From: Alkalihalobacterium alkalinitrilicum
Lineage (GTDB): Bacteria > Bacillota > Bacilli > Bacillales > Bacillaceae_F
Reading direction: 5' to 3'
NCBI RefSeq assembly: GCF_002019605.1
Contig: NZ_KV917368.1
Coordinates: 2,735,517 to 2,759,516 of the forward strand
DNA: 24,000 nt
Shown piece after piece: positions 1,572 to 20,630 of this stretch (position 1 is the stretch's first letter; the number at the start of each line of letters is the position of its first letter). The notes beneath the pieces were generated by a model that did no database searches, was not told the origin of the DNA, and was given only the letters and a program-made list of their open reading frames with translations. Made by a program: the position numbers and the translations under genes.

Positions 1572-1594
1572 ATAACCCCACCTCCAAATCAATC

Positions 1595-2626: not shown

Positions 2627-2628
2627 GT

Positions 2629-3879: not shown

Positions 3880-3888
3880 AAGAACCTC

Positions 3889-4629: not shown

Positions 4630-4634
4630 ATTTT

Positions 4635-6283: not shown

Positions 6284-6296
6284 TGAGGTCATCTCC

Positions 6297-7109: not shown

Positions 7110-7124
7110 TACATCCAACCCTTC

Positions 7125-7715
7125 CTAATTGTTGCCTCTAAAATTTTCAGTTGTCTGATGACCTATTTGATTGATGCCCTCTGACTTAAATACTTTAATA
7201 ATTGTGAGTATAATTATCTTAATATCTAATAAAAAACTTTGATTTTCTACATACCAAACATCATATTTAAACTTTTCTTCCCAAGAAATTGCATTTCTTC
7301 CATTAACTTGAGCCCATCCAGTTATACCTGGTTTGATTGACTGACGCTTTAACTGTTCCTCTGAATATAATGGAACATACTGCATTAACAATGGTCTTGG
7401 TCCTATTAAACTTATATCACCTTTCAGTACATTTATTAACTGTGGTAATTCATCTAAGCTACTTTTACGAAGAAGCTTACCAAAAGAAGTAAGTCTCTGA
7501 TGGTCTGGAAGAAGTTTACCTTCATCGTCTTTCTCATTTGTCATCGTCCGAAATTTATACAAGTAAAATGGCTTACTATATAATCCTGGACGTTGTTGTT
7601 TAAAAAGTAACGGTGTTCCTAACTTTTTCTTAACGAGTACAGCTACAACCAAAATAACAGGAAATAAAATGAGTAAAAGGAACGATGAAACTACTACATC
7701 AAAGGCTCGTTTCAT
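7125..7715 (-). CDS. epsL: Small monotopic phosphoglycosyl (undecaprenyl-phosphate sugar) transferase, EpsL/PglC-like
   Basis: Bacterial sugar transferase motifs: N-terminal re-entrant helix, then KQQRPGL..KPFYLYKFRTM, DELPQLINVLKGDISLIGPRP and GITGWAQVNGRN. Close to recalled B. subtilis EpsL. GGAGGTG RBS. Confidence 0.9.
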   Translation of the reverse strand: MKRAFDVVVSSFLLLILFPVILVVAVLVKKKLGTPLLFKQQRPGLYSKPFYLYKFRTMTNEKDDEGKLLPDHQRLTSFGKLLRKSSLDELPQLINVLKGDISLIGPRPLLMQYVPLYSEEQLKRQSIKPGITGWAQVNGRNAISWEEKFKYDVWYVENQSFLLDIKIIILTIIKVFKSEGINQIGHQTTENFRGNN

Positions 7716-7756
7716 AAGTCACCTCCATTTCCAGGCTCTATTTTTTGCTTCAAGTT

Positions 7757-7909
7757 TTATTCTGTTGCATTGACTACTGTCATAATATGCTCTTTAATCT
7801 CTTCAATTAACTCTGTAACATTTATATTCTTTTCTGACTGTCCCTTTTCATAAATTGTTAGTAAAATATTTTGAAGTTGTTGTTCTGATAATTTTTCTGA
7901 TATGTTCAT
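7757..7909 (-). CDS. Hypothetical 50-aa ORF in the epsG-epsL gap
   Basis: Below the track size cut-off. ATG at 7909, TAA at 7759-7757. Peptide MNISEKLSEQQLQNILLTIYEKGQSEKNINVTELIEEIKEHIMTVVNATE. Only a weak purine-rich RBS (GAAAGAA). It fills most of the one 220-bp gap in an otherwise tightly packed stretch. Confidence 0.25.
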   Translation of the reverse strand: MNISEKLSEQQLQNILLTIYEKGQSEKNINVTELIEEIKEHIMTVVNATE

Positions 7910-7936
7910 TTCTTTCAACCCGACCTTTTAATAATT

Positions 7937-9004
7937 TTAGAGATTAATGTAATCACTTCTGTAGTACATATTTAAGGAAATAACATGTTCAAAGAAAAAG
8001 TAAATAAAATAACAGACTAAAATTCCATAATAAACAAGCTTTTGATCTTTTTTAGAGAATAGCTTTATGATCCAAGAAATTAAAATTAATTGATATAATC
8101 CAAAATAAATTGAAAACCGAGCGAAAATCCAGTTTTGTGTAGATATGACGAGAAATACTAAACTCAAAATTGACATATTAACTATGACATCACTGTTTGG
8201 AAAAATTCTTTTTAGTTTATCCCTTCCTAAAAATGCGATAAGAACAGGTACTGCTCCCACAGATACTCTAAGTACACTAGCACCACCTTCTTGGAAGTTT
8301 TTATATCCTCCATATTGGGTATCTTCGATGGCACTAAATAGTATATTCATAAACTCATTAAATCCAATAACAATGAAAATTGAACAGCCTAATAAAATAT
8401 ATGTCGTTCGTGACCAAGCTGGGCTTCTGACAATAAAATAAATTGGGATTAGTATAAGTGCTGTTTGATGAATCGTTGAAGCGAATAAGACCACTAGCAA
8501 ATACTTTTTAAAGCTACCCTCGATAATATATTTTGTCGCAGCAAATACGATCGCTGCTGCTAAATACTGCCTAATACCATTCATCGAAACTAAGAAATAG
8601 CCGATTGTTATATATACGTATAAACTGATTTCAAATAATCGTGAATAATGGTATAAAGTCATTACTATCAGTGCGTTTGTTAATAGAGCAGTTACAAAAA
8701 TCATGATTTGCGGGTCACTGGAGATTTGCTGTAATAGCATTTGAAGAATGTTAAAACCAAAATCCCCTTCAAACTCAATCGTTTCCCAACTAAAGTTAGC
8801 GATACTATATGAGTGCATATAATAATAAGTATCGCCGACATTATTACGAAGACCCGATACAAGCACTAAAGTTGATAAAGCCAAAAAAGCCAATAATTTA
8901 TTTGGCTTTACCTCAGTAGGTCCTATTTCCGTTGGTTTTGCAAAGTACCTAGATAAAAACGAAAAGAAGTAGACTATAGAAAGATTTAGGTAAAATACGG
9001 TCAT
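7937..9004 (-). CDS. epsG: EpsG-family polytopic membrane protein (putative Wzy-type polysaccharide polymerase)
   Basis: 355 aa and highly hydrophobic, with many predicted TM segments. It has the EpsG-like early loop motif (RNNVGDTYYY) and sits at the epsG position of a Bacillus eps cluster. Confidence 0.78.
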   Translation of the reverse strand: MTVFYLNLSIVYFFSFLSRYFAKPTEIGPTEVKPNKLLAFLALSTLVLVSGLRNNVGDTYYYMHSYSIANFSWETIEFEGDFGFNILQMLLQQISSDPQIMIFVTALLTNALIVMTLYHYSRLFEISLYVYITIGYFLVSMNGIRQYLAAAIVFAATKYIIEGSFKKYLLVVLFASTIHQTALILIPIYFIVRSPAWSRTTYILLGCSIFIVIGFNEFMNILFSAIEDTQYGGYKNFQEGGASVLRVSVGAVPVLIAFLGRDKLKRIFPNSDVIVNMSILSLVFLVISTQNWIFARFSIYFGLYQLILISWIIKLFSKKDQKLVYYGILVCYFIYFFFEHVISLNMYYRSDYINL

Positions 9005-9045
9005 TTAATAAAACCCTTTCCATAGTTCAAGCGTGCTTAATTTGC

Positions 9046-9948
9046 TCAACTATTTTTTAATACTGTCGCCTTACCTGTATTTTGAATATACAAGTAAAGT
9101 AAAATTCCTAGTGGTGTTGCAAGAAATGTCGTCATTTTACAAGGTGACTCTAATAGAAATTTGTAGTTTTTAACCATGAGATTACTTGAAACATAGTGTA
9201 TGGATTCTCTGACTCTATCCTTAAAAGTTGGTGCATATTTCATTGCAACCTTTCTAAAAAAAGAAAAACCGCGGGGGTTTTTCTTATATTGCTTAATTAT
9301 ATTCATACTAGAACCATCATTTAGGTATTCCACGTGACATAATACTTCATTCATTATAAGTAACGGGAATTCTTGATCAATTAAAATATACTTATAACTT
9401 AATGGACAGTATTTTTCACCTGGGAATAACGGATACGGTGGTGTTTTTCTTGTAAGTTCCGTGCGATAAACGAGCTTTTTATCACCTTTCACTTTGTGCT
9501 TTCCGTATAAGTCAGAAAGTGGTGCACTCTTCAAGCGCTCTGGTAGTTTTGTTCCTATGATTTCACCATCTTGAGTAGCATCGAGTCCTACAATGCCCGC
9601 ATAATCCTTACTGCCATATTGCCTCCAAAACGTTAAAATCTTTTCAACTGCATCATCCGCCATATAATCGTCTGAATCAATGCACACATTAAGTTCCGTT
9701 TCAATTAATTCATACGCTGTATTATGAGCACCATGCATTCCTTGGTTTTCTTGATAGTGATAATGAATGGGAATAGCTCCTTCTAACATCCAACTTTCGA
9801 CGAGTTCCCTTGTATTATCAGTTGACCCATCATCGATTATTAACCATACGAAATCTTTACAAGTTTGTCTCTTCAAACTCTCATAACACAAGTGAAGACA
9901 ATAGGCTCGATTAAATGAAGGTGTAAACACCGTTAATGTTGCATTCAT
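9046..9948 (-). CDS. Glycosyltransferase family 2
   Basis: LTVFTPSFNRAYCLHLCYESLKRQ...LIIDDGSTDNT...IDSDD (DxD). GGAGG RBS 9 nt upstream of the ATG. Confidence 0.8.
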   Translation of the reverse strand: MNATLTVFTPSFNRAYCLHLCYESLKRQTCKDFVWLIIDDGSTDNTRELVESWMLEGAIPIHYHYQENQGMHGAHNTAYELIETELNVCIDSDDYMADDAVEKILTFWRQYGSKDYAGIVGLDATQDGEIIGTKLPERLKSAPLSDLYGKHKVKGDKKLVYRTELTRKTPPYPLFPGEKYCPLSYKYILIDQEFPLLIMNEVLCHVEYLNDGSSMNIIKQYKKNPRGFSFFRKVAMKYAPTFKDRVRESIHYVSSNLMVKNYKFLLESPCKMTTFLATPLGILLYLYIQNTGKATVLKNS

Positions 9949-9966
9949 TACTAAAAACCTCCATAT

Positions 9967-11097
9967 TTATGCTTGCTTCTTTTCAATGACACGACCTGTA
10001 TAGTAACCTGTAAGCCAATCAGCCATTGTTCCAGTATCATAACCACATTTTCGTAATAACTCGGATGTATCTTTATGCTCATAAGTTAATGATAAGATTT
10101 TGTTTGCCCATTGTTGTGGAGGTTCCTCTAATGGTAGAAATTCAACTCTGCCAGTAAGATCTGCTTCATTTGTAATCGTATTAGAGACAACACAATTTAA
10201 CCCAGCTGCCTGCGCTTCAACGAGGACTACTGGTAAACCTTCAAAAAGAGACGGAAATAAAAATAGATCAAATCCTTGCATTAAATTTGCAATATCTTCT
10301 CTAACACCTAAAAAGTGAACATGGGAATACAGCTTTAAATCATTGACTTTCTTTTCAATTTGCTGTCGTAAATGTCCATCTCCAACTAAAACGAGTACTG
10401 AGTCGGGCTGTTTATCTTGGACAGCTTTAAAAATATCAATTAAATATTCATGATTTTTTTGTTTATTAAATCTACCAATATGACCGATAACGAGTTTATT
10501 TTCTGCGTTTAGCTCTTCTCTCACTTTTTTACGTATGTTCTCGTTAAACTGAAACTCTTCAACATTCACCGCATTGTTTAACACTTTAACTTGCTGAGAT
10601 TTTGTAATCTTTTTACCAAACAACCACTCACCTGCTTGTTTTGAGCAAGCAAAATAGTGATTAGCATTATCTTTCATTGCTAATCTTGCATAAACTCTAA
10701 ACGGAAGTTTTAAGTCAAGTCCTAGGTCACTTAAGTGACTATGTGCAATTCGACATGGAACACCTGCTTTTTTGGCAGCGCGAAGGACAAAACTACTATT
10801 CTCGTTAATATGAGAATGAACGACTTGATATTCAGGATGGGCTCCAAAAAATTGATCAAGTTGTTTGAAGTACAAGTTATAATTCCCAGGTCGAATCTTC
10901 GGCATTCTGAAAACTTTACCACCAAGTGCCACTATTTCATCATCATAATGCCCTTTTTCCGTTCGATGGACTATAAAATCAAACTGTATTTTAGAGCGGT
11001 CGATCTTTCGGTAATAGTTCATTAACATCGTTTCAAGTCCGCCACGATTCATGATCGTTACGACTTGGAGGATACGTATCGGTTTCAGCGTAAACAC
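9967..11097 (-). CDS. epsF: Glycosyltransferase family 4, EpsF-like
   Basis: ILQVVTIMNRGGLETMLMNYYRKIDRSKIQFDF and FPSLFEGLPVVLVEAQAAGL match recalled B. subtilis EpsF. The start is a GTG at 11097 with GGAG directly abutting it (poor spacing), so the exact start is uncertain. Confidence 0.75.
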   Translation of the reverse strand: MFTLKPIRILQVVTIMNRGGLETMLMNYYRKIDRSKIQFDFIVHRTEKGHYDDEIVALGGKVFRMPKIRPGNYNLYFKQLDQFFGAHPEYQVVHSHINENSSFVLRAAKKAGVPCRIAHSHLSDLGLDLKLPFRVYARLAMKDNANHYFACSKQAGEWLFGKKITKSQQVKVLNNAVNVEEFQFNENIRKKVREELNAENKLVIGHIGRFNKQKNHEYLIDIFKAVQDKQPDSVLVLVGDGHLRQQIEKKVNDLKLYSHVHFLGVREDIANLMQGFDLFLFPSLFEGLPVVLVEAQAAGLNCVVSNTITNEADLTGRVEFLPLEEPPQQWANKILSLTYEHKDTSELLRKCGYDTGTMADWLTGYYTGRVIEKKQA

Positions 11098-11099
11098 TC

Positions 11100-12167
11100 C
11101 TATCTGATAATCTTTCGAAGTACTTCAATGCTTGATAACATTAAGTAAAAACCTAGAGCAAACCTTTGCTTTGCACAAAAATAAAACGCCCTCCACACTA
11201 TGGGGAATTGCCCCAACTCAAACTCTTTAAAGGAACGTTTAATTCGGTGATCATGTAGTATTTGGTTAAGTCTGTTGATTTTTGTAACAGGTGATCTTTT
11301 ATTAGCTTTACTTACCTCGTTTAAGCCAAGGCCTAACGTATTCATACTTATCCGATTATTTAGTGCTTGATAGAAGTCGTCACCCAAATCTTTTTCTTTT
11401 ATCAATTTTTCTATTATTTGATATAAATTTGACCAGTTGTCGATCAGCTTTGGTTTATACCCAGTTGTCACAGATGTTGAATTGACACGCCAATAATGAT
11501 AAAAAGGTTTATTGATAAAAGAAAATGTTTTCGTATAATAAAAAGCTTCGATATTAAATAATGAATCTTCGTTTGTCCCAATCACGCTTAAATCCGTAAA
11601 CGTGATGCCGTTATCTTTAATGATGTCGGCTCTATATAACTTAGACCAAACAGTTCCCCAAGCATCTAATAATTCTGGATTAGCTACTTCTTCTTTTAAT
11701 GGACCAACTAACCTTCTCATCACCTTTTCTTGAACATCATTTGCTTTATAAGTAATCTTTTCAGGCAAATTAAATTGTTTTTCCTTGGAGTGGCTGCCAA
11801 ACTCCCGCATATACGAACACATGACGATGTCGGCTCCATCTACTATTGCGGTTTCGTACATTTCTTCATACATTTCTTGATCCACCCAATCATCTGGATC
11901 AACGAAACCAATGAACTCGCCAGTTGCATTTGCTAGTCCTGCATTACGGGCTGACGAAACGCCACCATTTTCTTTGTCTATCACTTTAATCCGCTGATCC
12001 TTCGCAGCATACTCATGAAGAATGTCTAAGCTATTATCAGTAGACCCATCATTAACAGCAATAACCTCAATATCTAATAGCGTTTGGGATATTAAACTAT
12101 CAATAGATCTACTTAAATAATCTTCTACATTATATATGGGCATGATGATACTGACTTTTGGTTTCAT
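11100..12167 (-). CDS. Glycosyltransferase family 2
   Basis: VSIIMPIYNVEDYLSRSIDSLISQ...VNDGSTDNS...GFVDPDD. GGAGGAAG RBS. The ATG lies 38 nt inside the upstream epsD-like ORF. Confidence 0.85.
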   Translation of the reverse strand: MKPKVSIIMPIYNVEDYLSRSIDSLISQTLLDIEVIAVNDGSTDNSLDILHEYAAKDQRIKVIDKENGGVSSARNAGLANATGEFIGFVDPDDWVDQEMYEEMYETAIVDGADIVMCSYMREFGSHSKEKQFNLPEKITYKANDVQEKVMRRLVGPLKEEVANPELLDAWGTVWSKLYRADIIKDNGITFTDLSVIGTNEDSLFNIEAFYYTKTFSFINKPFYHYWRVNSTSVTTGYKPKLIDNWSNLYQIIEKLIKEKDLGDDFYQALNNRISMNTLGLGLNEVSKANKRSPVTKINRLNQILHDHRIKRSFKEFELGQFPIVWRAFYFCAKQRFALGFYLMLSSIEVLRKIIR

Positions 12168-13296
12168 TTTCTTCCTCCAGCATATAGCGTGTGTAGATGG
12201 TGCTTAGTTCTTGACTGATTTGTGAGAGGGAATAGGTGTTCATTAGGTTTATACTCGCTGCTCCCATTTGGCTTCGTAAGTCGGTATTTTGATAAATTCT
12301 TAGCAAGCCTCTCGCAAACTGCCCGTAGTCATGAGGAGATACGAGATAACCGTTCACTTGATCCTGAACGAGCTCGACATGGCCACGATTTTTACTTGCG
12401 ACAATCGGTAGTCCGCAGGCCATCGCTTCCATAATGTTGACGGGAAGCCCTTCTCTAAAGCTTGATCCGACAGCAATGTCACACATGGGAAGGATTTGGT
12501 CGATATCTTTTCGAAAGCCGAGAAAAACGACCATATGTTCAATTCCTAGTTGTTTGACGAGCTGCTTACAGCTTTCTTGAAGAGCGCCTTCGCCAGCGAG
12601 TAACAGCTTCGCGTTTGGCATATAGTCTTGAACTAAAGCAAGTGAGCGGATTAGCAATTGTTGGTTTTTATTTTTGTTAAATTCAGCTGCATAAAAGATG
12701 AAAAAGTCATCTGGATGATAGCCAAATGACTTTTTGCGTTCGCTTTTTTCAGTTTCAGTGATTGGTTTAAAGCGCTCTGTATCAACCCCCACTCCGTGAA
12801 CATGGTCGACTTCAATTGCTTTAAACTTGTGATGATTGGCTAATTGATAATCTTCTGCGTTGATCGTGATCAGACAATCGGTATACTTTGCCAACTGCTT
12901 TTCAATCGGATAATAGATGAGCCAATTTAAAGTGGGCGCTCCTTTACAAAAGTGAAAGCCATGTGCTGTATAAAGGACTTTTGTTCCAGATTTTCTAGCT
13001 TTTCGTGCGGCTAGCCTAGCAAGAACGCCTCCTAGCGGTGTATGACAATGGATGATGTCATAATCGTTTTCTTTAATAATTGCTTTTATTTGTTGATACG
13101 CCTTCACATTTTTCAACTTAAAAGGAGAGCGTTGAATTGGGATCCTAAACTTTTGATCCGTATACGGTAAATCAATTTCACCTTTAGCTGCGATGTGCAC
13201 TTCCCAGCCTTGCTCCTTAAACCATTTCATAAACGGTAAGTGAAAAGCCTTGAAATGATAGTCAACGGTTGCACAAAACAAAATTTTTTTAGGCAT
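12130..13296 (-). CDS. epsD: Glycosyltransferase family 4, EpsD-like
   Basis: The N-terminus KKILFCATVDYHFKAFHLPFMKWFKEQGWEVH is nearly identical to recalled B. subtilis EpsD. It also has the GT-B C-terminal EGLP motif. Confidence 0.82.
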   Translation of the reverse strand: MPKKILFCATVDYHFKAFHLPFMKWFKEQGWEVHIAAKGEIDLPYTDQKFRIPIQRSPFKLKNVKAYQQIKAIIKENDYDIIHCHTPLGGVLARLAARKARKSGTKVLYTAHGFHFCKGAPTLNWLIYYPIEKQLAKYTDCLITINAEDYQLANHHKFKAIEVDHVHGVGVDTERFKPITETEKSERKKSFGYHPDDFFIFYAAEFNKNKNQQLLIRSLALVQDYMPNAKLLLAGEGALQESCKQLVKQLGIEHMVVFLGFRKDIDQILPMCDIAVGSSFREGLPVNIMEAMACGLPIVASKNRGHVELVQDQVNGYLVSPHDYGQFARGLLRIYQNTDLRSQMGAASINLMNTYSLSQISQELSTIYTRYMLEEENETKSQYHHAHI

Positions 13297-13322
13297 TTAT
13301 ACCACCCATTCAAATCATTAAG

Positions 13323-14201
13323 TTATTTAATGAGTTCTTTTTCCATGACTTTTGATAAATATTCGAGTAAGTCATGCTTTAAATCTTCACGTTGAAGGGC
13401 AAACTCGATCGTTGTTTGAATAAAGCCCATTTTTTCACCAACATCATAACGGGTTCCTTCAAAATCATATGCGTAAACCGCTTCATATTCATTTAAGCCA
13501 CTAATGGCATCCGTTAACTGAATTTCTCCACCAGCTCCCGGCTTTTGTTTACTTAAGATGTCAAAGATTTTTGGACTTAAAATATACCGGCCTAAGATGG
13601 CTAGGTTTGACGGTGCTTCTTCCTGCTTTGGCTTTTCAACAAGATTGCTTACATTATAAAAACGTTCCCCGATGGACGTCGCATCAACAATCCCGTATCT
13701 TGAAACATCTTCATCTGCGACATGTTGAACACCGATAATCGAAGCATTATAACGCTCATATTGTTCCATCATTTGTTGCAAGCATGGCTTTTCGGCTTGA
13801 ACGATATCATCACCTAGTAAGACAGCAAATGGCTCATTACCAATAAATTTGCGAGCGCACCAGATTGCATGGCCTAACCCTTTTGGTTCCTTTTGCCTGA
13901 TATAATGGATGTCTACGAGTTTTGAAGATTTTTGAACTTCATTTAATAGTTCAAACTTGCCTTTTTCTAATAGATTTTGTTCTAATTCAAAAGAGTGGTC
14001 AAAATGATCTTCAATCGCTCGTTTACCCTTACCTGTAACGATAATAATATCTTCAATGCCAGATTCGATCGCTTCTTCAATAATATATTGGATCGTTGGT
14101 TTATCAACGATTGGTAACATCTCTTTTGGCATCGCTTTTGTCGCTGGGAGAAATCTTGTTCCTAACCCTGCAGCTGGAATAATCGCTTTTCTTACTTTCA
14201 T
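13323..14201 (-). CDS. gtaB: UTP-glucose-1-phosphate uridylyltransferase
   Basis: Canonical GalU/GtaB N-terminus [40 protein letters not shown] and VEKP motif. AAGGAG RBS. Confidence 0.93.
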
Positions 14202-14216
14202 TTACATGCACTCCTT

Positions 14217-16043
14217 TTAACTTGGGATTGTCAATAGTGGTTTAACGGAAACTTTGTTATTTGCTAAATTCAATAAAGCTTCCCTCAGTGTGTCTTTATC
14301 TAACTTTGAATAATTTTTAATAATCTCTTCAATTTCGGTCATGTAAAGTACTGATGTTTTTCCGATATAAATCATTGGATATACTTGCTCTTCTTGAACT
14401 TCTTCTTCTTTTAAAAGTTCTTCAAATAACTTCTCGCCTGGACGCATGCCACTAAATTCAATTTCGATTTCCTCTAGTGAGTTGCCCGATAATTTGATCA
14501 AGTTTTTCGCCAAGTCTACAATTTTGACAGGTTCGCCCATATCTAACACGAAAATTTCTCCGCCTTTCGCTAATGCTCCAGCTTGGATGACTAGGCGAGA
14601 AGCTTCTGGGATCGTCATAAAATAACGAACCATATCAGGGTGTGTTACCGTGACAGGTCCGCCTTTTTCAATCTGCTTTTTAAATAATGGGATGACGCTT
14701 CCTCGACTTCCTAATACGTTACCGAAACGGACAGCAACGAACTTCGTTTGGCTTTGATTATTCATATCTTGAATAATCATTTCTGCTAATCGTTTCGTAG
14801 CACCCATAACACTCGTTGGATTGACAGCTTTATCGGTTGAGATCATCACAAAGGTATCGACATGGTGTAAACTAGCTGCCATTGCTACATTCCTCGTACC
14901 GATTAAATTATTTTTGACAGCTTCTTCAGGGTTTCTTTCCATTAACGGAACATGTTTATGAGCAGCTGCATGATACACGACATCTGGATGATATGTATTC
15001 ATCACGGTTAGCATTTTATTGGCATCTTGTAAGTCGGCAATCTCAGTAATAAAATCAATATTCGTATGGACAAACGTCTCCTTTAATTCCATCTCAATCG
15101 AGTAAATGCTATTTTCGCCATGACCTAATAACACTAACTGCTTAGGATTAAAGTTTGAGATTTGCCGACACACTTCAGAACCAATTGAGCCTCCCGCACC
15201 TGTTACTAGAACGACCCTGTCAGTGATATATCCAGAAATTTTATCAATGTCGAGTTGGACAGGCTCACGGCCGAGTAAGTCCTCAACTTGGACATCGCGG
15301 AATTGATTAACTGAAACCTTTCCGGTGACAAGATCCTCTAACATCGGCATGATTTGCGCCTTTGCCTTTGTTTTCACACAAGCTTGAAAAATATCATTTA
15401 ACTCTTTTTTACTTAATGAAGGGATGGCGATGATAATATTTTCAATGTTTAACTTATTTACTGTTTCCTCGATTCCACTCGAACCACCAACGACAGGTAT
15501 TCCTAAAATATCTAATTGTTGTTTTTTCATATCATCATCAATAAAAGCAATAGGTAGTAACTCCCCGTCATTACTTTTTAAAAGTTGTCTCGCAACCATC
15601 GTTCCCGCAGAACCAGCACCGATGATGAGCGTTCTTTTTTTATTGTCTTCTTTATTCATATACGTATCACGATACATTCGCCAAACAAAGCGAGAACTTC
15701 CAATGAGTAAGATATGAAGCATCCACGTGATCGCTAACACGCGCAAGAATGTTTCTTGCAGGAAAAATTGCTGAACTAAAAATGCAGTAAGAATTGAAAA
15801 GGTAACGACTTTAAAAATGATTAATAGTTCCCCAATGCTCGCATACTCCCAGGCTTTTTTATACAGCTTTAGTACAATCGCAAAGAAATGATGACTCACT
15901 AATATAACGATTAGACTAGTAATGATCGGTAGTGTAAAAAAATTCAAGTCTGCTTTAACGAGAAAATGGCTGACAAAGATCGCCGTTAAAACAATACATG
16001 AATCAATGAGTATAAATAAGGAAAGCCTTTGCCGATACGTCAT
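14217..16043 (-). CDS. epsC: Membrane-anchored polysaccharide biosynthesis protein, UDP-GlcNAc 4,6-dehydratase type (EpsC/CapD/PglF-like)
   Basis: Four N-terminal TM helices followed by two Rossmann regions (IIGAGSAG; VTGAGGSIGSE). Also has the CapD-like core (YHAAAHKHVPLME, MISTDKAVNPTSVMGATKR). AGGAGGGG RBS. Confidence 0.9.
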   Translation of the reverse strand: MTYRQRLSLFILIDSCIVLTAIFVSHFLVKADLNFFTLPIITSLIVILVSHHFFAIVLKLYKKAWEYASIGELLIIFKVVTFSILTAFLVQQFFLQETFLRVLAITWMLHILLIGSSRFVWRMYRDTYMNKEDNKKRTLIIGAGSAGTMVARQLLKSNDGELLPIAFIDDDMKKQQLDILGIPVVGGSSGIEETVNKLNIENIIIAIPSLSKKELNDIFQACVKTKAKAQIMPMLEDLVTGKVSVNQFRDVQVEDLLGREPVQLDIDKISGYITDRVVLVTGAGGSIGSEVCRQISNFNPKQLVLLGHGENSIYSIEMELKETFVHTNIDFITEIADLQDANKMLTVMNTYHPDVVYHAAAHKHVPLMERNPEEAVKNNLIGTRNVAMAASLHHVDTFVMISTDKAVNPTSVMGATKRLAEMIIQDMNNQSQTKFVAVRFGNVLGSRGSVIPLFKKQIEKGGPVTVTHPDMVRYFMTIPEASRLVIQAGALAKGGEIFVLDMGEPVKIVDLAKNLIKLSGNSLEEIEIEFSGMRPGEKLFEELLKEEEVQEEQVYPMIYIGKTSVLYMTEIEEIIKNYSKLDKDTLREALLNLANNKVSVKPLLTIPS

Positions 16044-16066
16044 CTTGCCCCTCCTTTCTAATCGAT

Positions 16067-16210
16067 TTAATCTAGGGATAACGTCCTTCTTTCAATTGCA
16101 TATTCGACTAGTTTTTTGATCTCATCAAGTTCCTCTTGCGATGCATCTTGCTTTATATAACGAATTGCCTTCTTTATCGACTTAGGCAATCGATCAAAGT
16201 CTTTGGTCAT
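16067..16210 (-). CDS. Hypothetical 47-aa protein immediately upstream of epsC
   Basis: Below the track cut-off. ATG at 16210 with GAGGAG 7 nt upstream; TAA at 16069-16067, only 23 nt before the epsC ATG. Peptide MTKDFDRLPKSIKKAIRYIKQDASQEELDEIKKLVEYAIERRTLSLD. No family recognised. Confidence 0.45.
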   Translation of the reverse strand: MTKDFDRLPKSIKKAIRYIKQDASQEELDEIKKLVEYAIERRTLSLD

Positions 16211-16239
16211 ATCAACACTCCTCACTTTAGTTGGGAATT

Positions 16240-16291
16240 AAAAGTACTTAAGTTTACGGTCTTTCATAAAACCACATACTTAAGTACTTTT
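16240..16291. repeat. Perfect 14-bp inverted repeat (AAAAGTACTTAAGT / ACTTAAGTACTTTT) around a 24-nt loop
   Basis: Arms at 16240-16253 and 16278-16291 are exact reverse complements. Each arm is built from overlapping palindromes (AAGTACTT, ACTTAAGT). On the minus-strand transcript it forms an AU-rich hairpin ending in UUUU, between the structured-RNA candidate and the 47-aa ORF RBS. Confidence 0.8.
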
Positions 16292-16305
16292 ATTTAATAA
16301 AAAAT

Positions 16306-16415
16306 AGGGCATCTAACCCCTCCTCACACCATACTATCGACGACTTGCGTCTAAGGTTTGTCAACCCACAGCATGACCGAGTACCTCCGTTGATAATGGT
16401 AAGGAGGTATCACCA
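16306..16415 (-). ncRNA. Candidate EAR (eps-associated RNA / epsC motif) processive-antitermination element
   Basis: It lies in the epsB-epsC intergenic gap, where EAR sits in Bacillales eps operons, and is locally GC-rich compared with its AT-rich flanks. On the minus-strand RNA there is a hairpin GAUACCUCC (16411-16403) / GGAGGUACUC (16388-16379). Its 14-nt loop segment ACCAUUAUC can pair with the downstream GAUAGUAUGGU (16338-16328), giving 9 bp with a 2-nt bulge, i.e. a pseudoknot. Small hairpins GGUUGACAAACC and GACGCAAGUCGUC are also present. I did not compare it with the Rfam model. Confidence 0.4.
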
Positions 16416-16436
16416 AATTTGATTTTTATAACGCAC

Positions 16437-16458
16437 ATTATAATTCTCAATAAAGAAC
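16437..16458 (-). promoter_or_regulatory. Sin-type operator variant abutting a TATAAT hexamer, 20 nt downstream of the epsB stop
   Basis: Plus strand ATTCTCAATAAAGAAC (16443-16458) differs at one base from the reverse complement of the box at 20585-20600. On the minus strand it is followed directly by TATAAT (16442-16437). The -35 is poor (CTTAAC). Confidence 0.3.
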
Positions 16459-16478
16459 GTTAAGGTAAAAAAATATAG

Positions 16479-17174
16479 TTATGATTTTTCGTTTATAATC
16501 GCTCCGATCAGCTCGGCTTTGGCAAATTTTAAAACTTTCTTGGCCTCAACCGCTTTTTCGATCTTACTTTTACCATGTCTTAAAACTAGAACGACCGTCT
16601 TACATTGATTGGCTAAAAGCTTTGTATCTGATACTTCTAATAAAGGTGGTGAATCTATTAATATAACATCGTAGGATTGGGAAGCCGTTTCTAGTAAGCG
16701 AGAAAATGCGTTCGACCCTAATAACTCTGCTGGATTATCGGGGAGCGGTCCACTCGTTAACACCTCTAATTTCCCTATATTCGTTTCTTTCACCGCTTCT
16801 TCAAACCAGTTTTGATTCGTTAATACCGATGATAAACCTAGTGAATTATCGAGTTTAAAAATCGAATGAATTCTTGGGCTTCTTAAATCAGCATCAATGA
16901 TGAGAACTTTTTCTTTTTGTTGTGCGATGGAAACCGCTAGATTGGCAACTGTTGTTGATTTTCCCTCTTGTAAAGATGGAGACGTCATCAAGATAGTCTT
17001 ACTCGGCTTTTCATTTGCTGAAAATTGGATATTGGTTCGAATCGTTCGAAATTCTTCTGTAATAATCGACTCTGGGTTGGAAAATGTGATTAAATTTCGT
17101 TTTTGATTTTTATTAGTTATAACACTTTTAAGTCTTTTTAAGATCAACAATCTCACCTCGGTATTCTGTTTCAC
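16479..17174 (-). CDS. epsB: BY-kinase-type P-loop ATPase (EpsB/YwqD/CapB-like), without a C-terminal tyrosine cluster
   Basis: EEFRTIRTNIQF, Walker A (SPSLQEGKST), Walker A' (VLIIDADLR) and Walker B (DVILIDSPP). The track start at 17174 is a GTG. A TTG at 17147 has better spacing from GAGGTGA. The protein ends ...LIGAIINEKS. Confidence 0.82.
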   Translation of the reverse strand: MKQNTEVRLLILKRLKSVITNKNQKRNLITFSNPESIITEEFRTIRTNIQFSANEKPSKTILMTSPSLQEGKSTTVANLAVSIAQQKEKVLIIDADLRSPRIHSIFKLDNSLGLSSVLTNQNWFEEAVKETNIGKLEVLTSGPLPDNPAELLGSNAFSRLLETASQSYDVILIDSPPLLEVSDTKLLANQCKTVVLVLRHGKSKIEKAVEAKKVLKFAKAELIGAIINEKS

Positions 17175-17829
17175 GATGCTTCTTCTTTTTCTTATTAATA
17201 TTCTTTTTATTCATTTTTGAAACAGAGCCTAATATGGGAAGTCCTATTAATTCTTCTACGTCTCGATCCGAGCTAACTGTATCATCCAGAGAATTTAGTA
17301 AAAATACAAAGCCTGTTCCAATGACAAGTCCCATAATAAACGCAATATATATTGTTCTATTACTTTTACTATTGATTGGATATGGATTTACTTTCGCTTC
17401 AGACAAATAACTGACATCGTTAAAATCAACAATTTCTCCAATCTCATTTTTAAAAACCGTTGCAGTAGTATTGGCAATCTCTGCTGCTAAATTCGGATCT
17501 GTATCTATGACTGAAATTCTGACGACTTGTGAATTATCGATACTTTCAACCGTAATTTGCCCTGCTAATGCTTCTGGTGATCTCGTTAAGTTCAGTTCCA
17601 TGACGACCTTTTCCATGATAATCGAATCTCTCATAATAACTCTAAGTGTGTTCATATAATCTGAACTTGCACCTACGATTATGCGACTAGATGATTGGTA
17701 GAGAGATGTGATACTTGAAGAATTTTGAAAGTAGCCAGCAATTGTAGCAATCATCGTAATGACAACAATTATCCAAAAACGCTTTTTTATAATGAGAAAT
17801 ATTTCTCTTAAATTAATTTCTTTTGCCAT
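17128..17829 (-). CDS. epsA: Wzz/chain-length-determinant type transmembrane modulator (EpsA/YwqC/CapA-like)
   Basis: N-terminal TM helix (FWIIVVITMIATIAGYF), periplasmic-type middle region, second TM helix (IYIAFIMGLVIGTGFVFLL) and a basic cytoplasmic tail (KKNINKKKKKH). The track TTG at 17844 is rejected in favour of the ATG at 17829, which has GGAG 6 nt upstream. Confidence 0.82.
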   Translation of the reverse strand: MAKEINLREIFLIIKKRFWIIVVITMIATIAGYFQNSSSITSLYQSSSRIIVGASSDYMNTLRVIMRDSIIMEKVVMELNLTRSPEALAGQITVESIDNSQVVRISVIDTDPNLAAEIANTTATVFKNEIGEIVDFNDVSYLSEAKVNPYPINSKSNRTIYIAFIMGLVIGTGFVFLLNSLDDTVSSDRDVEELIGLPILGSVSKMNKKNINKKKKKHRETEYRGEIVDLKKT

Positions 17830-17869
17830 ATCGTTCTCCACCAACTTATTATTTGATTACTTTAGTGTA

Positions 17870-17885
17870 GTTCTCTTTAAAGAAC
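17870..17885. promoter_or_regulatory. Sin-type operator in the eps leader (GTTCTCTTTAAAGAAC)
   Basis: 16-bp imperfect palindrome (12/16 self-complementary) containing the published B. subtilis SinR consensus GTTCTYT. It lies 41-56 nt upstream of the epsA ATG. Confidence 0.5.
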
Positions 17886-17991
17886 AGTAAGACCAAAAAA
17901 ATTTGAAATAAATCTTATTTCCTACGAATTAAGTTTAATGTCTTAGTCATATAGAACTAATTGTTCAATTTGGAAAAATATTTCTAATGTC

Positions 17992-18020
17992 ATTTTAGTT
18001 CTTTATAAAGAACATGTCAA
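17992..18020 (-). promoter_or_regulatory. Sigma-A-type eps promoter with a perfect Sin-type palindrome in the spacer
   Basis: The minus strand reads TTGACA (18020-18015), then T + GTTCTTTATAAAGAAC (17-nt spacer, box at 18013-17998), then TAAAAT (17997-17992). The -35 is canonical with a 17-bp spacer, and the -10 matches 5/6. Confidence 0.6.
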
Positions 18021-18033
18021 TAGAAAAGTTTCT

Positions 18034-18399
18034 TTATTCGCAAAATTCATTATGGCTTACTTTCTTACTTTGATTTTTCATATGATCCAACTTTTGAATC
18101 ATATCTCTTAGTTCTTCTAAACTAATATTTTTTCGTTTCATTTCTTCGGTTAGGTGGATGAGTTGGATATCTACTACGTTTTCTTTAGTACTTGTCTTAC
18201 TTTGTCCATTAAAAAAATAAGCGATATCAATTTTAAAGTAGTTTGATAGACTTTCTAAAACTTCAATAGCAGGCTTCCGATTTCCGCGTTCAATTTTTGA
18301 TAAATTACTATAATTAAATTCAATTGCATCCCCTAATTCTTTTAATGTCATCCCATGGCTTAGTCGCAAATCTTTAATTCTCTCTCCAATATGCTTCAA
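18034..18399 (-). CDS. XRE-family HTH regulator with a C-terminal Sin-like helical region (SlrR-like candidate)
   Basis: N-terminal HTH_3 pattern (IKDLRLSHGMTLKELGDAIEFNYSNLSKIERGNRKP). The C-terminus LIHLTEEMKRKNISLEELRDMIQKL loosely resembles the SinI/SinR interaction helices. TTG start at 18399 supported by GGAGTGAG 6 nt upstream. It sits next to epsA, as slrR does in B. subtilis. Confidence 0.7.
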   Translation of the reverse strand: MKHIGERIKDLRLSHGMTLKELGDAIEFNYSNLSKIERGNRKPAIEVLESLSNYFKIDIAYFFNGQSKTSTKENVVDIQLIHLTEEMKRKNISLEELRDMIQKLDHMKNQSKKVSHNEFCE

Positions 18400-18438
18400 T
18401 ACTGTCTCACTCCATTACTTCTTAAATAATCCGCTTTC

Positions 18439-18497
18439 GTTCGTTACAAAGAACACAGTTTCGCTGTTACTATACCATGGATTGTCAAATTGAACAA
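18439..18497 (-). promoter_or_regulatory. Putative extended -10 promoter of the XRE gene plus a downstream Sin-type box
   Basis: Minus strand: TTGTTC (18497-18492), 17 nt, TGG-TATAGT (-10 at 18474-18469, TGn extension). Box GTTCGTTACAAAGAAC (18439-18454, 12/16 palindromic) lies just downstream of the predicted start. A further variant GTTCTTTTTATAGAGC sits at 18516-18531. Confidence 0.35.
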
Positions 18498-18649
18498 TAT
18501 ATAACTTTAGATTTTGTTCTTTTTATAGAGCTTTTTTTGTGAAAATCACATATTTCTATATATTAATTTACATTAATTGAACAAAAATACCACTAAAACG
18601 AATGCTTTGAAAAAAATGTTAAATTATATAATTTTTTTACAACTAACTA

Positions 18650-18681
18650 TTGTAATTACTTATCTGTTCTATATAATGAAC
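18650..18681 (+). promoter_or_regulatory. Putative promoter of the first sinI-like ORF, overlapped by a Sin-type box
   Basis: TTGTAA (18650-18655), 16 nt, TATAAT (18672-18677). The box GTTCTATATAATGAAC (18666-18681, 12/16 palindromic) contains the -10. Confidence 0.4.
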
Positions 18682-18719
18682 ATATAGATGTTATTTCATA
18701 TCGATGGGGGACGATATAT

Positions 18720-18878
18720 ATGAAGTATATTCAACCAATAAATCAAGTTAGAACACTCGATGAGGAATGGATCCAACTTATAAAATGTGCAAAAGACATC
18801 GGCCTCAAACCTGATGATGTAAAAAAATTTCTAGGTCAATTCGAAAAGGACAAAAAAATAGCACAAAACAAAAACTAG
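18720..18878 (+). CDS. SinI/SlrA-like anti-repressor, 52 aa
   Basis: Not in the ORF track. Peptide MKYIQPINQVRTLDEEWIQLIKCAKDIGLKPDDVKKFLGQFEKDKKIAQNKN. It carries the Sin interaction motif LDxEWxxLIxxAKxxGLxxxxVKKFL seen in B. subtilis SinI (LDQEWVELMVEAKEANISPEEIRKYL). GGGGG lies 9 nt upstream. Confidence 0.7.
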   Translation: MKYIQPINQVRTLDEEWIQLIKCAKDIGLKPDDVKKFLGQFEKDKKIAQNKN

Positions 18879-18914
18879 ACTTAATTCGTAATATACATTA
18901 TGAATTAAGTCTAG
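18875..18914 (+). terminator. Hairpin after the first sinI-like ORF (possible weak intrinsic terminator)
   Basis: Perfect 13-bp stem CTAGACTTAATTC (18875-18887) / GAATTAAGTCTAG (18902-18914) with a 14-nt loop, followed by TTTC. The stem is AT-rich and the U-tract short. Confidence 0.4.
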
Positions 18915-19153
18915 TTTCAAAAGACCTTTACTCTTCTAATTTTTATTTTACTATATTTACACTATTACTAATTTAGTAATACATATAGGTATTTATAACT
19001 ATAAAATAATTCTCTTGATCTAGGAAAACCTTGTAGAATTTTTGCTTTTTTTCGTATATTTACACCTAAACTAATACGAAATGACAATTTCTTAACTACT
19101 AAAAACCAACAGCAAGACCTGTACCATGCGTCTTTAATCTTCCCATAAGTAAA

Positions 19154-19160
19154 TGTCGAA
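19154..19160 (+). promoter_or_regulatory. Exact Spo0A-box consensus heptamer TGTCGAA
   Basis: Exact match to the 0A-box consensus TGNCGAA, about 200 nt upstream of sinI. In B. subtilis, sinI is Spo0A-activated. A single 7-mer could occur by chance. Confidence 0.3.
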
Positions 19161-19362
19161 TGGATAGCATGACTATATTTATGACTTCAGTAACTAATAT
19201 CTTTTCCAAATTTTATATATAATTAATTTAACCTTAATATTGGACGTTTTAATTTATGTAACATGGCACTCTTAAAAATCTGAATATTCTCAATAATTAA
19301 GTGAATACCTACACCATTGTTAAAGGATAATAGGCCTGTTTTAAGATTAGGGAGGTAATATC

Positions 19363-19485
19363 ATGAATACTAAGACCCATGAGGTTTTAGACAATGAATG
19401 GACAGCTCTTATGAGGGAAGCAAAAGATCTAGGAATAACGATTGAGGAAGTAAAGGAATATCTTAAAAACAGTAGAAAGACATGA
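19363..19485 (+). CDS. sinI: SinI anti-repressor, 40 aa
   Basis: Not in the ORF track. Peptide MNTKTHEVLDNEWTALMREAKDLGITIEEVKEYLKNSRKT with the LDxEWxxLMxEAKxxGIxxEEVKxYL motif. GGAGG RBS at 19351-19355. It lies 81 nt upstream of sinR, the canonical sinI-sinR arrangement. Confidence 0.82.
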   Translation: MNTKTHEVLDNEWTALMREAKDLGITIEEVKEYLKNSRKT

Positions 19486-19492
19486 CCTCTCA

Positions 19493-19528
19493 GTTCTATT
19501 TACAGAACTAGCTTAAAACTGTTATAAT
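19493..19528 (+). promoter_or_regulatory. Internal sinR promoter (P3-like) overlapped by a Sin-type box
   Basis: TTTACA (19499-19504), 18 nt, TG-T-TATAAT (extended -10, hexamer at 19523-19528). The box GTTCTATTTACAGAAC (19493-19508, 12/16 palindromic) covers the -35. Confidence 0.45.
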
Positions 19529-19566
19529 TCCTATAAGTACACAGGTTAAGAGAGGAATCGATACAG

Positions 19567-19902
19567 ATGATCGGTGAAAAAGTCAAGAAATTACGCTTAG
19601 AAAAGGGCTTATCTTTATCTGAACTAGCAGAATCTGCTGGAGTTGCAAAGTCTTACTTAAGTTCAATTGAAAGAAACATCCAATCGAATCCTTCGATACA
19701 ATTCCTTGAAAAGATCTCAAAAGTTTTAGGTGTAAGCGTCGAGACCGTATTAAACGAAAATAATGAAAAACAATCGGTAACCGAATACGACCTAGACTCT
19801 GCTTGGATCGAGTTAGTCAAAGAAGCTATGGAGTCAGGTGTGAGTAAAGAGCAATTCCGTGAATACTTGGAATTTAATAAATGGCGTAAACACAATAGTT
19901 AA
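19567..19902 (+). CDS. sinR: SinR master biofilm repressor
   Basis: 111 aa, collinear with recalled B. subtilis SinR: MIG...KGxSLSELAExAGVAKSYLSSIERNxQxNPSIQFLEKxSxVLxVSV and C-terminal SGVSKxQFRExLxxxKWRK. Confidence 0.92.
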   Translation: MIGEKVKKLRLEKGLSLSELAESAGVAKSYLSSIERNIQSNPSIQFLEKISKVLGVSVETVLNENNEKQSVTEYDLDSAWIELVKEAMESGVSKEQFREYLEFNKWRKHNS

Positions 19903-19962
19903 ACTCCATTATCTCCCCTTTAGCAACCAAAGAAAACAATATTTAACAAGTCCGTTTTCAAT

Positions 19963-20004
19963 AAAAAAATACCCCGCCTCATTACATCGAGGTGGGTTAT
20001 TTTT
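19963..20004. terminator. Bidirectional intrinsic terminator shared by convergent sinR and the HTH-only gene
   Basis: A-tract (19963-19969), stem CCCGCCTC (19973-19980) / GAGGTGGG (19989-19996) with an 8-nt loop, then TTATTTTT. On the minus strand the stem has one A-C mismatch but is followed by U7. It overlaps the last codons of the minus-strand ORF. Confidence 0.7.
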
Positions 20005-20212
20005 CTTCTGGGGTATTCAAAACCTTAATTAAATAAACAAGTTCAACACCAAGGGACTGTGCCAATTTTTCTAACACAGAAATGCTTGGATTAGTTTGTA
20101 GTCCACGTTCAATGTAACTGAGATATGACTTTGAAATACCTGACAGCTCTGAGAGTCGATCTAAAGACATTCCTTTCTTTTTTCGTAACTCTCTAATATT
20201 CCCCCCATTCAT
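19997..20212 (-). CDS. HTH-only SinR paralog (71 aa XRE-family DNA-binding domain, no C-terminal Sin interaction region)
   Basis: KGMSLDRLSELSGISKSYLSYIERGLQTNPSISVLEKLAQSLGVEL aligns residue for residue with the SinR HTH region encoded at 19567-19902. The protein stops about 10 aa after the HTH domain. AGGAGAG RBS 6 nt before the ATG. Confidence 0.75.
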   Translation of the reverse strand: MNGGNIRELRKKKGMSLDRLSELSGISKSYLSYIERGLQTNPSISVLEKLAQSLGVELVYLIKVLNTPEEK

Positions 20213-20247
20213 TTGTATCTCTCCTTTTTATTATGATCATCGCCCTC

Positions 20248-20260
20248 AAAAAAAAAAAAA
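20248..20260. repeat. A13 (T13 on the transcribed minus strand) homopolymer
   Basis: Thirteen consecutive A bases between the stop of the 95-aa ORF (20263) and the RBS of the HTH-only gene. Confidence 0.9.
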
Positions 20261-20262
20261 CT

Positions 20263-20550
20263 CTAGTATACTTCAAATCTCATTTCGTAGTAATAATCAT
20301 CCGTTTGATTTTTTTTTATTGAAGTAAGGATCATACCGTATATTTCAATTCCGTCTAACAATTTTAATGACACTTTATAAATTACATCCTCTGAAACTGG
20401 AAACTTTAAAGAACTTATAAATATTAGTGATGTTGTTGTAAATTCAACTATTTCTACTTTTGTACATTTAGAGTCGACAACCTTTCCTTTCACGACATGA
20501 ATGATGAGCTCTGCTTGAATGGGGTTGTCAATTGTAAATTCCGTCGTCAA
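20263..20550 (-). CDS. Small beta-rich protein, degenerate PilZ-like (tentative)
   Basis: 95 aa. TTG start with a strong AAGGAGG 8 nt upstream. Alternating beta-strand pattern ...KVEIVEFTTTSLIFISSLKFPVSEDVIYKVSLKLLDGIEIYGMILTSIKK....YYYEMRFE resembles the PilZ barrel (DxSxxG-strand, hairpins, final Y.F strand). It lacks the RxxxR and DxSxxG c-di-GMP motifs. Confidence 0.55.
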   Translation of the reverse strand: MTTEFTIDNPIQAELIIHVVKGKVVDSKCTKVEIVEFTTTSLIFISSLKFPVSEDVIYKVSLKLLDGIEIYGMILTSIKKNQTDDYYYEMRFEVY

Positions 20551-20584
20551 TTACCTGTCCTCCTTAAAAGTTTTTTACACCACT

Positions 20585-20630
20585 GTTCTTTATAGAGAAT
20601 ATTATAGTTTATTTGTTCTTTATAGTAAAC
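20585..20630 (-). promoter_or_regulatory. Putative promoter of the 95-aa ORF bracketed by two Sin-type boxes
   Basis: Minus strand TTTACT (20629-20624), 17 nt, TATAAT (20606-20601). Box GTTCTTTATAGAGAAT (20585-20600) abuts the -10 and covers the predicted start. Box GTTCTTTATAGTAAAC (20615-20630) covers the -35 and spacer. The boxes share TGTTCTTTATAG as a direct repeat exactly 30 bp apart. Confidence 0.45.

Follow-up and report, generated by a model that had tools for sequence, protein, structure and literature searches.

A conserved HTH-only SinR paralog in the sin locus of alkaliphilic Bacillaceae, a candidate Cro-like branch of the Sin switch

The SinI-SinR-SlrR system is the textbook bistable biofilm/motility switch of Bacillus and, to our knowledge, all of its known control acts via a C-terminal protein-protein hook. 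What might a SinR-type protein without this hook do beside sinI and sinR? The question is raised by a gene of Alkalihalobacterium alkalinitrilicum, here called sHTH, whose 71-residue product is a SinR/SlrR-type paralog reduced to its helix-turn-helix (HTH) domain. It lies in a stretch of 24,000 nucleotides (contig NZ_KV917368.1 of assembly GCF_002019605.1, positions 2,735,517 to 2,759,516), referred to below as the window, which is a merged eps/sin regulatory locus. Our results showed that sHTH is a real, conserved and most likely functional gene, is under purifying selection and belongs to an old separate lineage. As to its role, we give an even chance to the composite proposal, drawn from sequence, that sHTH acts as a Cro-like binder of sin boxes, beyond capture by SinI, and forms a feedback branch of the Sin circuit. 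The positions of the features are given in Table 1.

The initial annotation had aligned the 71-residue protein with SinR's DNA-binding domain and had noted that it stops directly after that domain. Both statements hold. The product, MNGGNIRELRKKKGMSLDRLSELSGISKSYLSYIERGLQTNPSISVLEKLAQSLGVELVYLIKVLNTPEEK, starts at an ATG codon and is 49% identical to SinR of the window (BLASTP, E=6e-20), the recognition-helix strings being SKSYLSYIERGLQTNPSI in sHTH and AKSYLSSIERNIQSNPSI in the 111-residue SinR. Its sole Pfam domain is the XRE-type HTH_3 (residues 6-61, E=8e-19), and its closest sequence match in the PDB is SinR of B. subtilis (E=3e-14, against 4e-9 for the next family). According to the AlphaFold2 (AF2) model, of mean predicted local distance difference test (pLDDT) score 90.4, the protein has five helices at residues 4-12, 17-24, 28-35, 44-54 and 58-66, and the chain stops 5 residues beyond the end of helix 5 at residue 66. 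The closest structural match of this model is DNA-bound SinR (3ZKC), with a root-mean-square deviation of 1.4 Å over 62 residues and 53% identity; controller proteins of restriction-modification (R-M) systems come next, and 434 Cro (2CRO) stands lower in the list. The best NCBIfam match is the SlrR model, over residues 1-62 only and with 61 bits for a cut-off of 250. Judged on these matches, the likeness of sHTH to SinR is far above chance.

We found no SinI-type domain (PF08671) in sHTH by Pfam, in the same search that finds SinR, SinI and the second SinI-like protein of the window. Because this defining C-terminal domain was looked for and is absent, sHTH is not a SinR/SlrR member in the strict sense. 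It is a homolog of the SinR N-domain and, in its working, would most resemble 434 Cro or an R-M controller protein.

SinI binds residues 74-111 of SinR and ends its DNA binding through reorganisation of the oligomer (Colledge et al. 2011, PMC3163267). It had been proposed from the letters of the window that sHTH lacks the C-terminal helices for tetramerisation and for capture by SinI or SlrR, and this is borne out, as the hook is absent and capture acts on residues 74-111. The known route of SinI/SlrR capture is therefore inapplicable to sHTH. The same study found that SinR(1-69) is a monomer in solution and a 434-Cro-like dimer in the crystal, held via residues 40-44 and helix 5, and that the full-length tetramer of SinR has a dissociation constant (Kd) of ~0.3 µM for an inverted repeat and of ~3 µM for a single site (PMC3163267). 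A bare SinR-type HTH presumably must therefore dimerise somehow for useful DNA binding. By analogy, sHTH could be a poor competitor of SinR unless it is dimerised, via its conserved hydrophobic helix 5 or via a partner.

Is the short protein a remnant of a longer one? The initial annotation had considered that a longer open reading frame (ORF) in relatives would mark this copy as a recent truncation or pseudogene; the relatives proved to be likewise short (67-86 aa, ~25 species) and under strong purifying selection. A word-indexed search returned 12 close relatives, 68-86 aa long and from Alkalihalobacterium, Alkalihalobacillus and Anaerobacillus, whose database names, where given, are only "helix-turn-helix domain-containing" or "hypothetical" protein. 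The ortholog scan covered one genome per species and 80 loci, with every match extended to its stop codon. It placed the sHTH orthologs (L001-L026) in at least 5 alkaliphilic Bacillaceae genera, with Halalkalibacter and Alkalicoccobacillus in addition to the three already named. All proteins of the MNGGNIR...SKSYISYIERGxQKNPSI type are 67-86 aa long. The other matches of the scan are SinR-like over their full length (106-139 aa) and carry a C-terminal "DEEW..." domain, with the exception of Evansella (L054), which has a separate, divergent short protein of 76 aa. Computed on 64 gap-free codons, the ratio of nonsynonymous to synonymous substitution rates (dN/dS) of sHTH is 0.02-0.06 against the closest orthologs even though dS exceeds 1, with a median of 0.10 over 63 pairs.

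The window copy is itself 5 aa shorter than its closest orthologs. Where these read EDK, then Y, H or Q, then PTSM and a stop, sHTH reads EEK, a stop, an in-frame PTSM and two stops, so that a single nonsense codon (TAA after "...PEEK", 19982-19999, minus strand) clips a 5-aa tail that is unconserved beyond the closest genus. This clipped tail speaks for a decaying fragment, that is, a recently truncated sinR or slrR copy without function, and so do the nearest full-length relatives, which suggest an ancestor with a C-terminal domain. Yet all of the ~25 orthologs are short, dN/dS stays at 0.02-0.1 at dS above 1, the ribosome-binding site, promoter and terminator of sHTH are intact, and downstream there is neither space for nor trace of a C-terminal domain. 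Since sHTH is conserved, this explanation is already refuted, and we regard its probability as negligible. Likewise, a pseudogene or recent truncation was excluded on the short orthologs, the low dN/dS and the lack of any downstream remnant beyond the 5-aa tail.

To place the lineage, we used a neighbor-joining tree of HTH domains, which includes the B. subtilis SinR and SlrR sequences (residues 2-61 of this SinR match the PDB alignment). The short sHTH clade is monophyletic in 76/100 bootstraps, the co-resident SinR proteins cluster with B. subtilis SinR in 73/100, and sHTH and its co-resident SinR are sisters in 0/100, which excludes a recent tandem duplicate of the local sinR. The nearest full-length relatives of sHTH share its "MNG/MDG" start and keep a C-terminal helical domain (for example, 110 aa at 62% identity), and the loss of this domain was therefore probably single and ancient. 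A search of representative sequences returned mostly multi-HTH repeat proteins, and just three short single-domain ones (79, 75 and 75 aa) are among its top 150. Two other explanations were set aside. A prophage or Cro origin is not supported: phage matches stay under 50% identity at E>=6e-9 and rank behind SinR, and the neighbors are housekeeping and eps genes; a defense or R-M controller was discarded on PADLOC matches that are only generic HTH or "control protein", with no R-M genes in the neighborhood.

The surroundings of sHTH are conserved as well. The gene stands tail-to-tail with sinR, with only a terminator in common, which has an A-run and a T-run on its two sides and abuts the sHTH stop codon; the clipped PTSM codons now lie in its stem. 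Upstream of sHTH, and first in the same operon, is a 95-residue ORF named ORF95. As mapped by tblastn, the order ORF95 and sHTH facing sinI and sinR (ORF95, sHTH, then sinR, sinI on the opposite strand) is kept in ~20 loci across genera. Every locus examined has sHTH adjoining sinI-sinR, an eps-like operon, or both. One metagenome-assembled genome (MAG) of Anaerobacillus carries sHTH directly upstream of a gene of the 121-aa HTH type and eps, with no sinIR nearby; L002 and L003 have no sinR within 5 kb of sHTH; and sHTH occurs without ORF95 in L021, L025, L002 and L003. ORF95 is absent in Alkalicoccobacillus.

We analyzed the operators of the locus by matches to GTTCT-N6-AGAAC. All promoter and operator assignments given here are consensus matches, and the sin boxes are putative sites. 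With at most one mismatch, the window holds 8 boxes, a number reached in 0/100 shuffles, for 0.73 expected by chance. All eight lie within 16443-20600, and most overlap promoter hexamers; several sit at sigma-A-like promoter matches. Two boxes, the second weaker, bracket the ORF95-sHTH promoter at 30 bp centre-to-centre. Of the 24 related loci scanned, 23 have one to three boxes upstream of ORF95 at a distance of 40-100 bp (counted from sHTH in loci that lack ORF95), the Evansella locus being the sole one without any, and most orthologous loci have at least two boxes upstream of ORF95. The box is also present in loci without nearby sinR (L002, L003) and without ORF95 (L021, L025). This recurrence in 23/24 loci places the sHTH operon in the sin-box regulon. 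The initial annotation had suggested a new layer in the switch, and the synteny with sinI-sinR, together with the promoter boxes, embeds sHTH in the Sin circuit.

The promoter of sinR carries a box of its own. Of the 21 loci that have an adjacent sinR in convergent orientation, 16 keep its palindrome (GTTCTGTAAATAGAAC in the orientation of the locus) unchanged, 4 others have it with one or two changes, and L008 has no match. This recurrent box on the -35 hexamer suggests that sinR is under sin-box control, by autorepression or by sHTH repression. Among the boxes of the 24 related loci, we saw by eye no clear distinction between separate operator classes for SinR and sHTH.

Do the two proteins read the same operators? 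K28, S29, Y30, S32, E35, R36, Q39, N41, P42 and S43 are invariant in both lineages, while 13 positions have non-overlapping residue sets. In or near the recognition helix, sHTH has fixed S27, Y33 and G37 where SinR has A27, S33 and N37. DNA-contact positions were assigned from the analogy with 434 repressor and from conservation only; position 33 we take to align one to one with the base-contacting Gln33 of that repressor. Positions 59, 63 and 65 of helix 5 also differ systematically; at 59 and 65, all sHTH proteins have a hydrophobic residue and all SinR proteins Glu or a polar one. The three fixed differences in the recognition region argue for overlapping, not identical, operator specificities. 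Y33, G37 and the hydrophobic helix 5 suggest, at the level of residues, such an overlap and a dimerisation that is self- or partner-assisted.

These class-specific residues, fixed in all species, would also suit a dedicated local regulator, with its own specificity (Y33/G37), that mainly autoregulates ORF95-sHTH or a few targets, does not compete with SinR, and owes its place beside sinIR to common ancestry, not to common operators. The box kept upstream of sHTH even without sinR within 5 kb (L002, L003) points the same way, as does the presence among its structural neighbors of HTH-only XRE controllers of R-M systems, which are typically autoregulators. Against it, the boxes of the operon are indistinguishable from those of the eps and sinI-like promoters (same GTTCT arms, AT-rich centres), the synteny with sinIR and eps extends across at least 5 genera, and most predicted DNA-facing residues are the same as in SinR. 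We therefore consider such a purely local role rather unlikely.

The proposed feedback branch would work as follows. SinR would repress the ORF95-sHTH operon via the sin boxes of its promoter. When SinI inactivates SinR, sHTH would accumulate and bind palindromes of the sin-box type as a weak dimer like that of 434 Cro, held by the alpha3-alpha4 loop that both proteins have in common and by a helix 5 more hydrophobic than that of SinR. Having no C-terminal hook, sHTH would be captured neither by SinI nor by an SlrR-like protein, which would make the branch SinI-independent. The branch would include autorepression of the ORF95-sHTH operon. In addition, sHTH would repress one of two further targets, the matrix promoters, which would then be shut again (a reset), or the box of the sinR promoter (a Cro-like lock of the ON state).

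Several points weigh against this proposal. To go by the monomeric SinR(1-69) and the Kd of ~0.3 µM of the tetramer, bare sHTH may bind too weakly to matter unaided. Positions 27, 33 and 37 are fixed differently, and the true operators of sHTH may thus differ from those of SinR. The boxes at the ORF95-sHTH promoter could be bound by SinR only, and the promoters and operators invoked are candidates identified by their consensus. Finally, 434 cro is divergent from cI, whereas sHTH is convergent with sinR. That sHTH is a real conserved gene, that it is HTH only and that it is embedded in the sin-box regulon are all much more certain than the composite model.

An opposite effect on the matrix genes is conceivable. 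sHTH could form mixed dimers on a palindrome with one N-terminal domain of SinR, or take one of two paired boxes, and so break the bridging by SinR tetramers, weaken repression and promote matrix expression. The alpha3-alpha4 loop (Q39, N41, P42, S43, I44), which contributes to the dimer interface of SinR(1-69), does not differ between the two proteins, and promoters carry multiple boxes at a spacing suited to cooperative binding. However, the differences at positions 59, 63 and 65 of helix 5, the other half of the interface, favor homodimers, and a weak monomer is a poor competitor against a tetramer. Such a dominant-negative or anti-looping action appears improbable to us.

The operon partner of sHTH offers a further possibility. 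ORF95 has no Pfam, NCBIfam or PDB sequence match and ~10 database relatives, of which the named ones are "hypothetical" and the named organisms all belong to the same alkaliphilic Bacillaceae group. Orthologs of ORF95 occur within L004-L026. Its AF2 model, built on an alignment of 10 sequences (pLDDT 82.5), is an all-beta domain of six strands, and the top Foldseek matches of this model in the PDB are nearly all PilZ domains (BcsA, MotI/DgrA, MrkH, VCA0042, YcgR, MapZ), with TM scores of 0.6-0.71 and E-values of only 3e-3 to 1e-1. The RxxxR and (D/N)xSxxG motifs for cyclic di-GMP (c-di-GMP) are in 0/13 aligned orthologs, and Pfam gives no PilZ (PF07238) match even at E<=1. Taken at the level of the fold, and from a shallow alignment, ORF95 appears PilZ-like and is probably a non-canonical adaptor. 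Its homologs in Halalkalibacter and Alkalihalobacillus are longer (105-149 aa). Most of them end 0-29 nt from the sHTH start codon or overlap it, which supports the operon and suggests translational coupling. In genera other than that of the window, the protein has an additional C-terminal helical extension of 30-50 aa, and its gene overlaps the sHTH start. In the window, the two genes are separated by a 50-nt gap that holds 13 A in a row on the plus strand, T13 on the coding one, at 20248-20260. This tract could be slippage-prone and is unlikely to be a terminator, because it has no hairpin.

A small protein encoded first and an HTH_3 protein second, closely coupled or overlapping in many species and with a palindromic operator-like box on the promoter, is also what one would see for a toxin-antitoxin-like pair of HigB/HigA-like order, with ORF95 as toxin and sHTH as XRE-type antitoxin and autorepressor. 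We find this very improbable. The predicted fold of ORF95 is PilZ-like, and the searches of Pfam, NCBIfam and PADLOC gave no toxin family for it, its sole PADLOC match being a marginal REase_II (E=0.0022, 14.7 bits). Both genes lie on the chromosome, are inherited vertically and keep their synteny from genus to genus rather than being patchy; in addition, sHTH is specifically SinR-like and is found without ORF95 in the four loci mentioned above.

ORF95, which the initial annotation had missed, may instead be sHTH's own regulator; to be immune to SinI is not the same as to be unregulated. A more specific and speculative version, to which we give limited credence, is that the two proteins work together as one regulator, the PilZ-fold partner standing in, in trans, for the SinI/SinR C-terminal hook. 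As a co-repressor, ORF95 would then dimerise sHTH on sin boxes or tether it there; as an anti-repressor, it would instead sequester sHTH. Either action might depend on a nucleotide or some other signal. If so, the alkaliphile Sin switch would have a second, SinI-independent input on the same operators, and SinR and sHTH would repress each other's promoters in a cI/Cro-like manner.

Table 1. Features of the window around sHTH, with positions counted from its first nucleotide
Feature	Position	Strand	Remarks
eps-like operon, ~17 genes	405-17844	(-)	
Small conserved ORF in the 435-bp eps gap	16067-16225	(-)	52 aa; called genes of 46-55 aa in orthologous loci
Putative sin box inside eps operon	16443-16458		in the 435-bp gap between the tyrosine-kinase-like and epsC-like genes; conserved in related loci
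Second putative sin box upstream of eps	17870-17885		
Putative sin box GTTCTTTATAAAGAAC, perfect	17998-18013		in eps promoter spacer (-35 TTGACA 18015-18020; -10 17992-17997, minus strand)
121-aa HTH_3 gene	18034-18399	(-)	directly upstream of eps operon; outgroup to SinR and sHTH in the tree
Further putative sin boxes	18439-18454, 18516-18531		upstream of 121-aa HTH gene
Putative sin box GTTCTATATAATGAAC	18666-18681		over -10 of second sinI-like gene
Second SinI-like gene, 52 aa	18720-18878	(+)	SinI domain (Pfam); divergent from 121-aa HTH gene
sinI, 40-aa anti-repressor	19363-19485	(+)	Pfam SinI, E=3.5e-13
Putative sin box GTTCTATTTACAGAAC, perfect	19493-19508		over -35 of sinR promoter (TTTACA 19499-19504; TG-TATAAT 19523-19528)
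sinR, 111 aa	19567-19902	(+)	HTH_3 and SinI-type C-terminal domain PF08671 (Pfam); convergent with sHTH
Bidirectional intrinsic terminator hairpin	19973-19996		common to sinR and sHTH; 8-bp stem, 6 GC pairs; terminator scan
sHTH, 71 aa	19997-20212	(-)	SinR/SlrR-type HTH-only paralog; ORF listing, Pfam, BLASTP, AF2
sHTH ribosome-binding site AAAGGAG	20221-20227	(-)	strong; 8-nt spacer to ATG; sequence reading
ORF95, 95 aa	20263-20550	(-)	first gene of ORF95-sHTH operon; TTG start; ribosome-binding site AAGGAGG 20559-20565
Putative sin box GTTCTTTATAGAGAAT	20585-20600		9/10 to GTTCT-N6-AGAAC; directly downstream of ORF95-sHTH -10
Sigma-A-like promoter of ORF95-sHTH (consensus match)	20601-20629	(-)	-35 TTTACT 20624-20629, 17-nt spacer, -10 TATAAT 20601-20606; 10/12
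Weaker sin-box-like palindrome GTTCTTTATAGTAAAC	20615-20630		8/10; on ORF95-sHTH -35; GTTCTYT half-site match at 20615

The remainder of the window consists largely of the eps-like operon, whose products include Wzz-like, tyrosine-kinase-like and EpsC-like dehydratase proteins, glycosyltransferases, EpsG, a sugar transferase, an aminotransferase and a pyruvyl transferase. The 121-aa HTH protein encoded next to it has a SinI-like helical pattern in its C-terminal part without a Pfam SinI match and is 67-75% identical in related loci; its gene holds the place that slrR has in B. subtilis, upstream of eps. Past the pair of ORF95 and sHTH lie an aldehyde dehydrogenase and a homoserine dehydrogenase gene. 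Related loci hold one to three SinI-like genes. At L003 (GCA_009771445.1, 4412-5794), sHTH stands between two SinI-like genes and beside eps, and a full-length SinR is missing from the 5 kb around it; SinR may be encoded at another place, or else the SinI-like proteins of that assembly act on a different target. We also observed, on a 2.8-kb contig (L022) of a MAG named Flavihumibacter sp., a Bacteroidota bin, an sHTH/sinR pair near-identical in type to that of Alkalicoccobacillus. This is probably a mis-binned Bacillaceae contig.

In the literature, of which our coverage is incomplete, we found no SinR paralog described that is HTH-only and nothing that ties SinR to PilZ. On the comparisons made here, sHTH appears to be a previously unnoticed component of the textbook switch, in non-model alkaliphiles. 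It is a conserved, selected paralog that keeps the DNA-reading half alone, in the sin locus, with the same putative operators on its promoter and with a PilZ-like partner. ORF95 now defines an orphan, PilZ-like family by its modeled fold, linked to biofilm regulation. That Sin arose from a phage immunity module is an idea of long standing. If sHTH binds sin boxes, the switch would have a layer beyond the reach of SinI, and sHTH would naturally play "Cro" to the "cI" of SinR, a point of relevance to that idea.

How does the pair compare with known systems? For ORF95, the predicted six-stranded barrel resembles PilZ domains (TM 0.6-0.71), and the nearest known cases are single-domain adaptors such as MapZ, Xanthomonas PilZ and the C-domain of MotI/DgrA, together with MrkH, a PilZ transcription factor. 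Unlike PilZ adaptors and MrkH, it has neither a Pfam PilZ match nor the c-di-GMP motifs, and its Foldseek E-value is ~3e-3; as with single-domain PilZ adaptors, it is small, stand-alone and encoded beside a biofilm-locus regulator. Controller proteins of R-M systems have 70-80 aa, form dimers with helices 4 and 5 as the interface and use palindromic operators to autoregulate. sHTH is an HTH-only XRE protein like C.AhdI, C.BclI and C.Esp1396I, which are among its top structural neighbors, but no restriction or methylase genes are near it, and its identity to them is 25-42% against 53% to SinR.

SlrR captures SinR through C-terminal SinI-like domains that are wholly absent from sHTH, and the slrR-equivalent position upstream of eps is held not by sHTH but by the 121-aa HTH gene. 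Like SlrR, sHTH is a paralog of SinR, has Gly37, has a gene that we infer to be SinR-controlled and may form a feedback branch. Unlike SinR, it has no linker and no C-terminal two-helix domain and, consequently, neither a SinR-type tetramer nor a surface for SinI or SlrR, and it is an old separate lineage with fixed S27, Y33 and G37 and a hydrophobic helix 5. It shares with SinR(1-69) the five-helix XRE fold at ~50% identity, with an identical K28-S29-Y30-x-S32 core and Q39-x-N41-P42-S43-I44 loop, and with SinR the place in the sin locus and the GTTCTYT-type palindromes at neighboring promoters.

The remaining comparison is with 434 Cro. sHTH differs from it in being chromosomal, outside a prophage and convergent rather than divergent across the operator region. 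Like 434 Cro, it is a single-domain HTH protein of ~70 aa whose homology is to the DNA-binding part of a longer repressor with its gene close by. The dimer of the SinR N-domain superposes on that of 434 Cro (PMC3163267). The predicted logic would also be that of Cro, namely common operators under different regulation, where the sharing of operators by sHTH and SinR is suggested by analogy.

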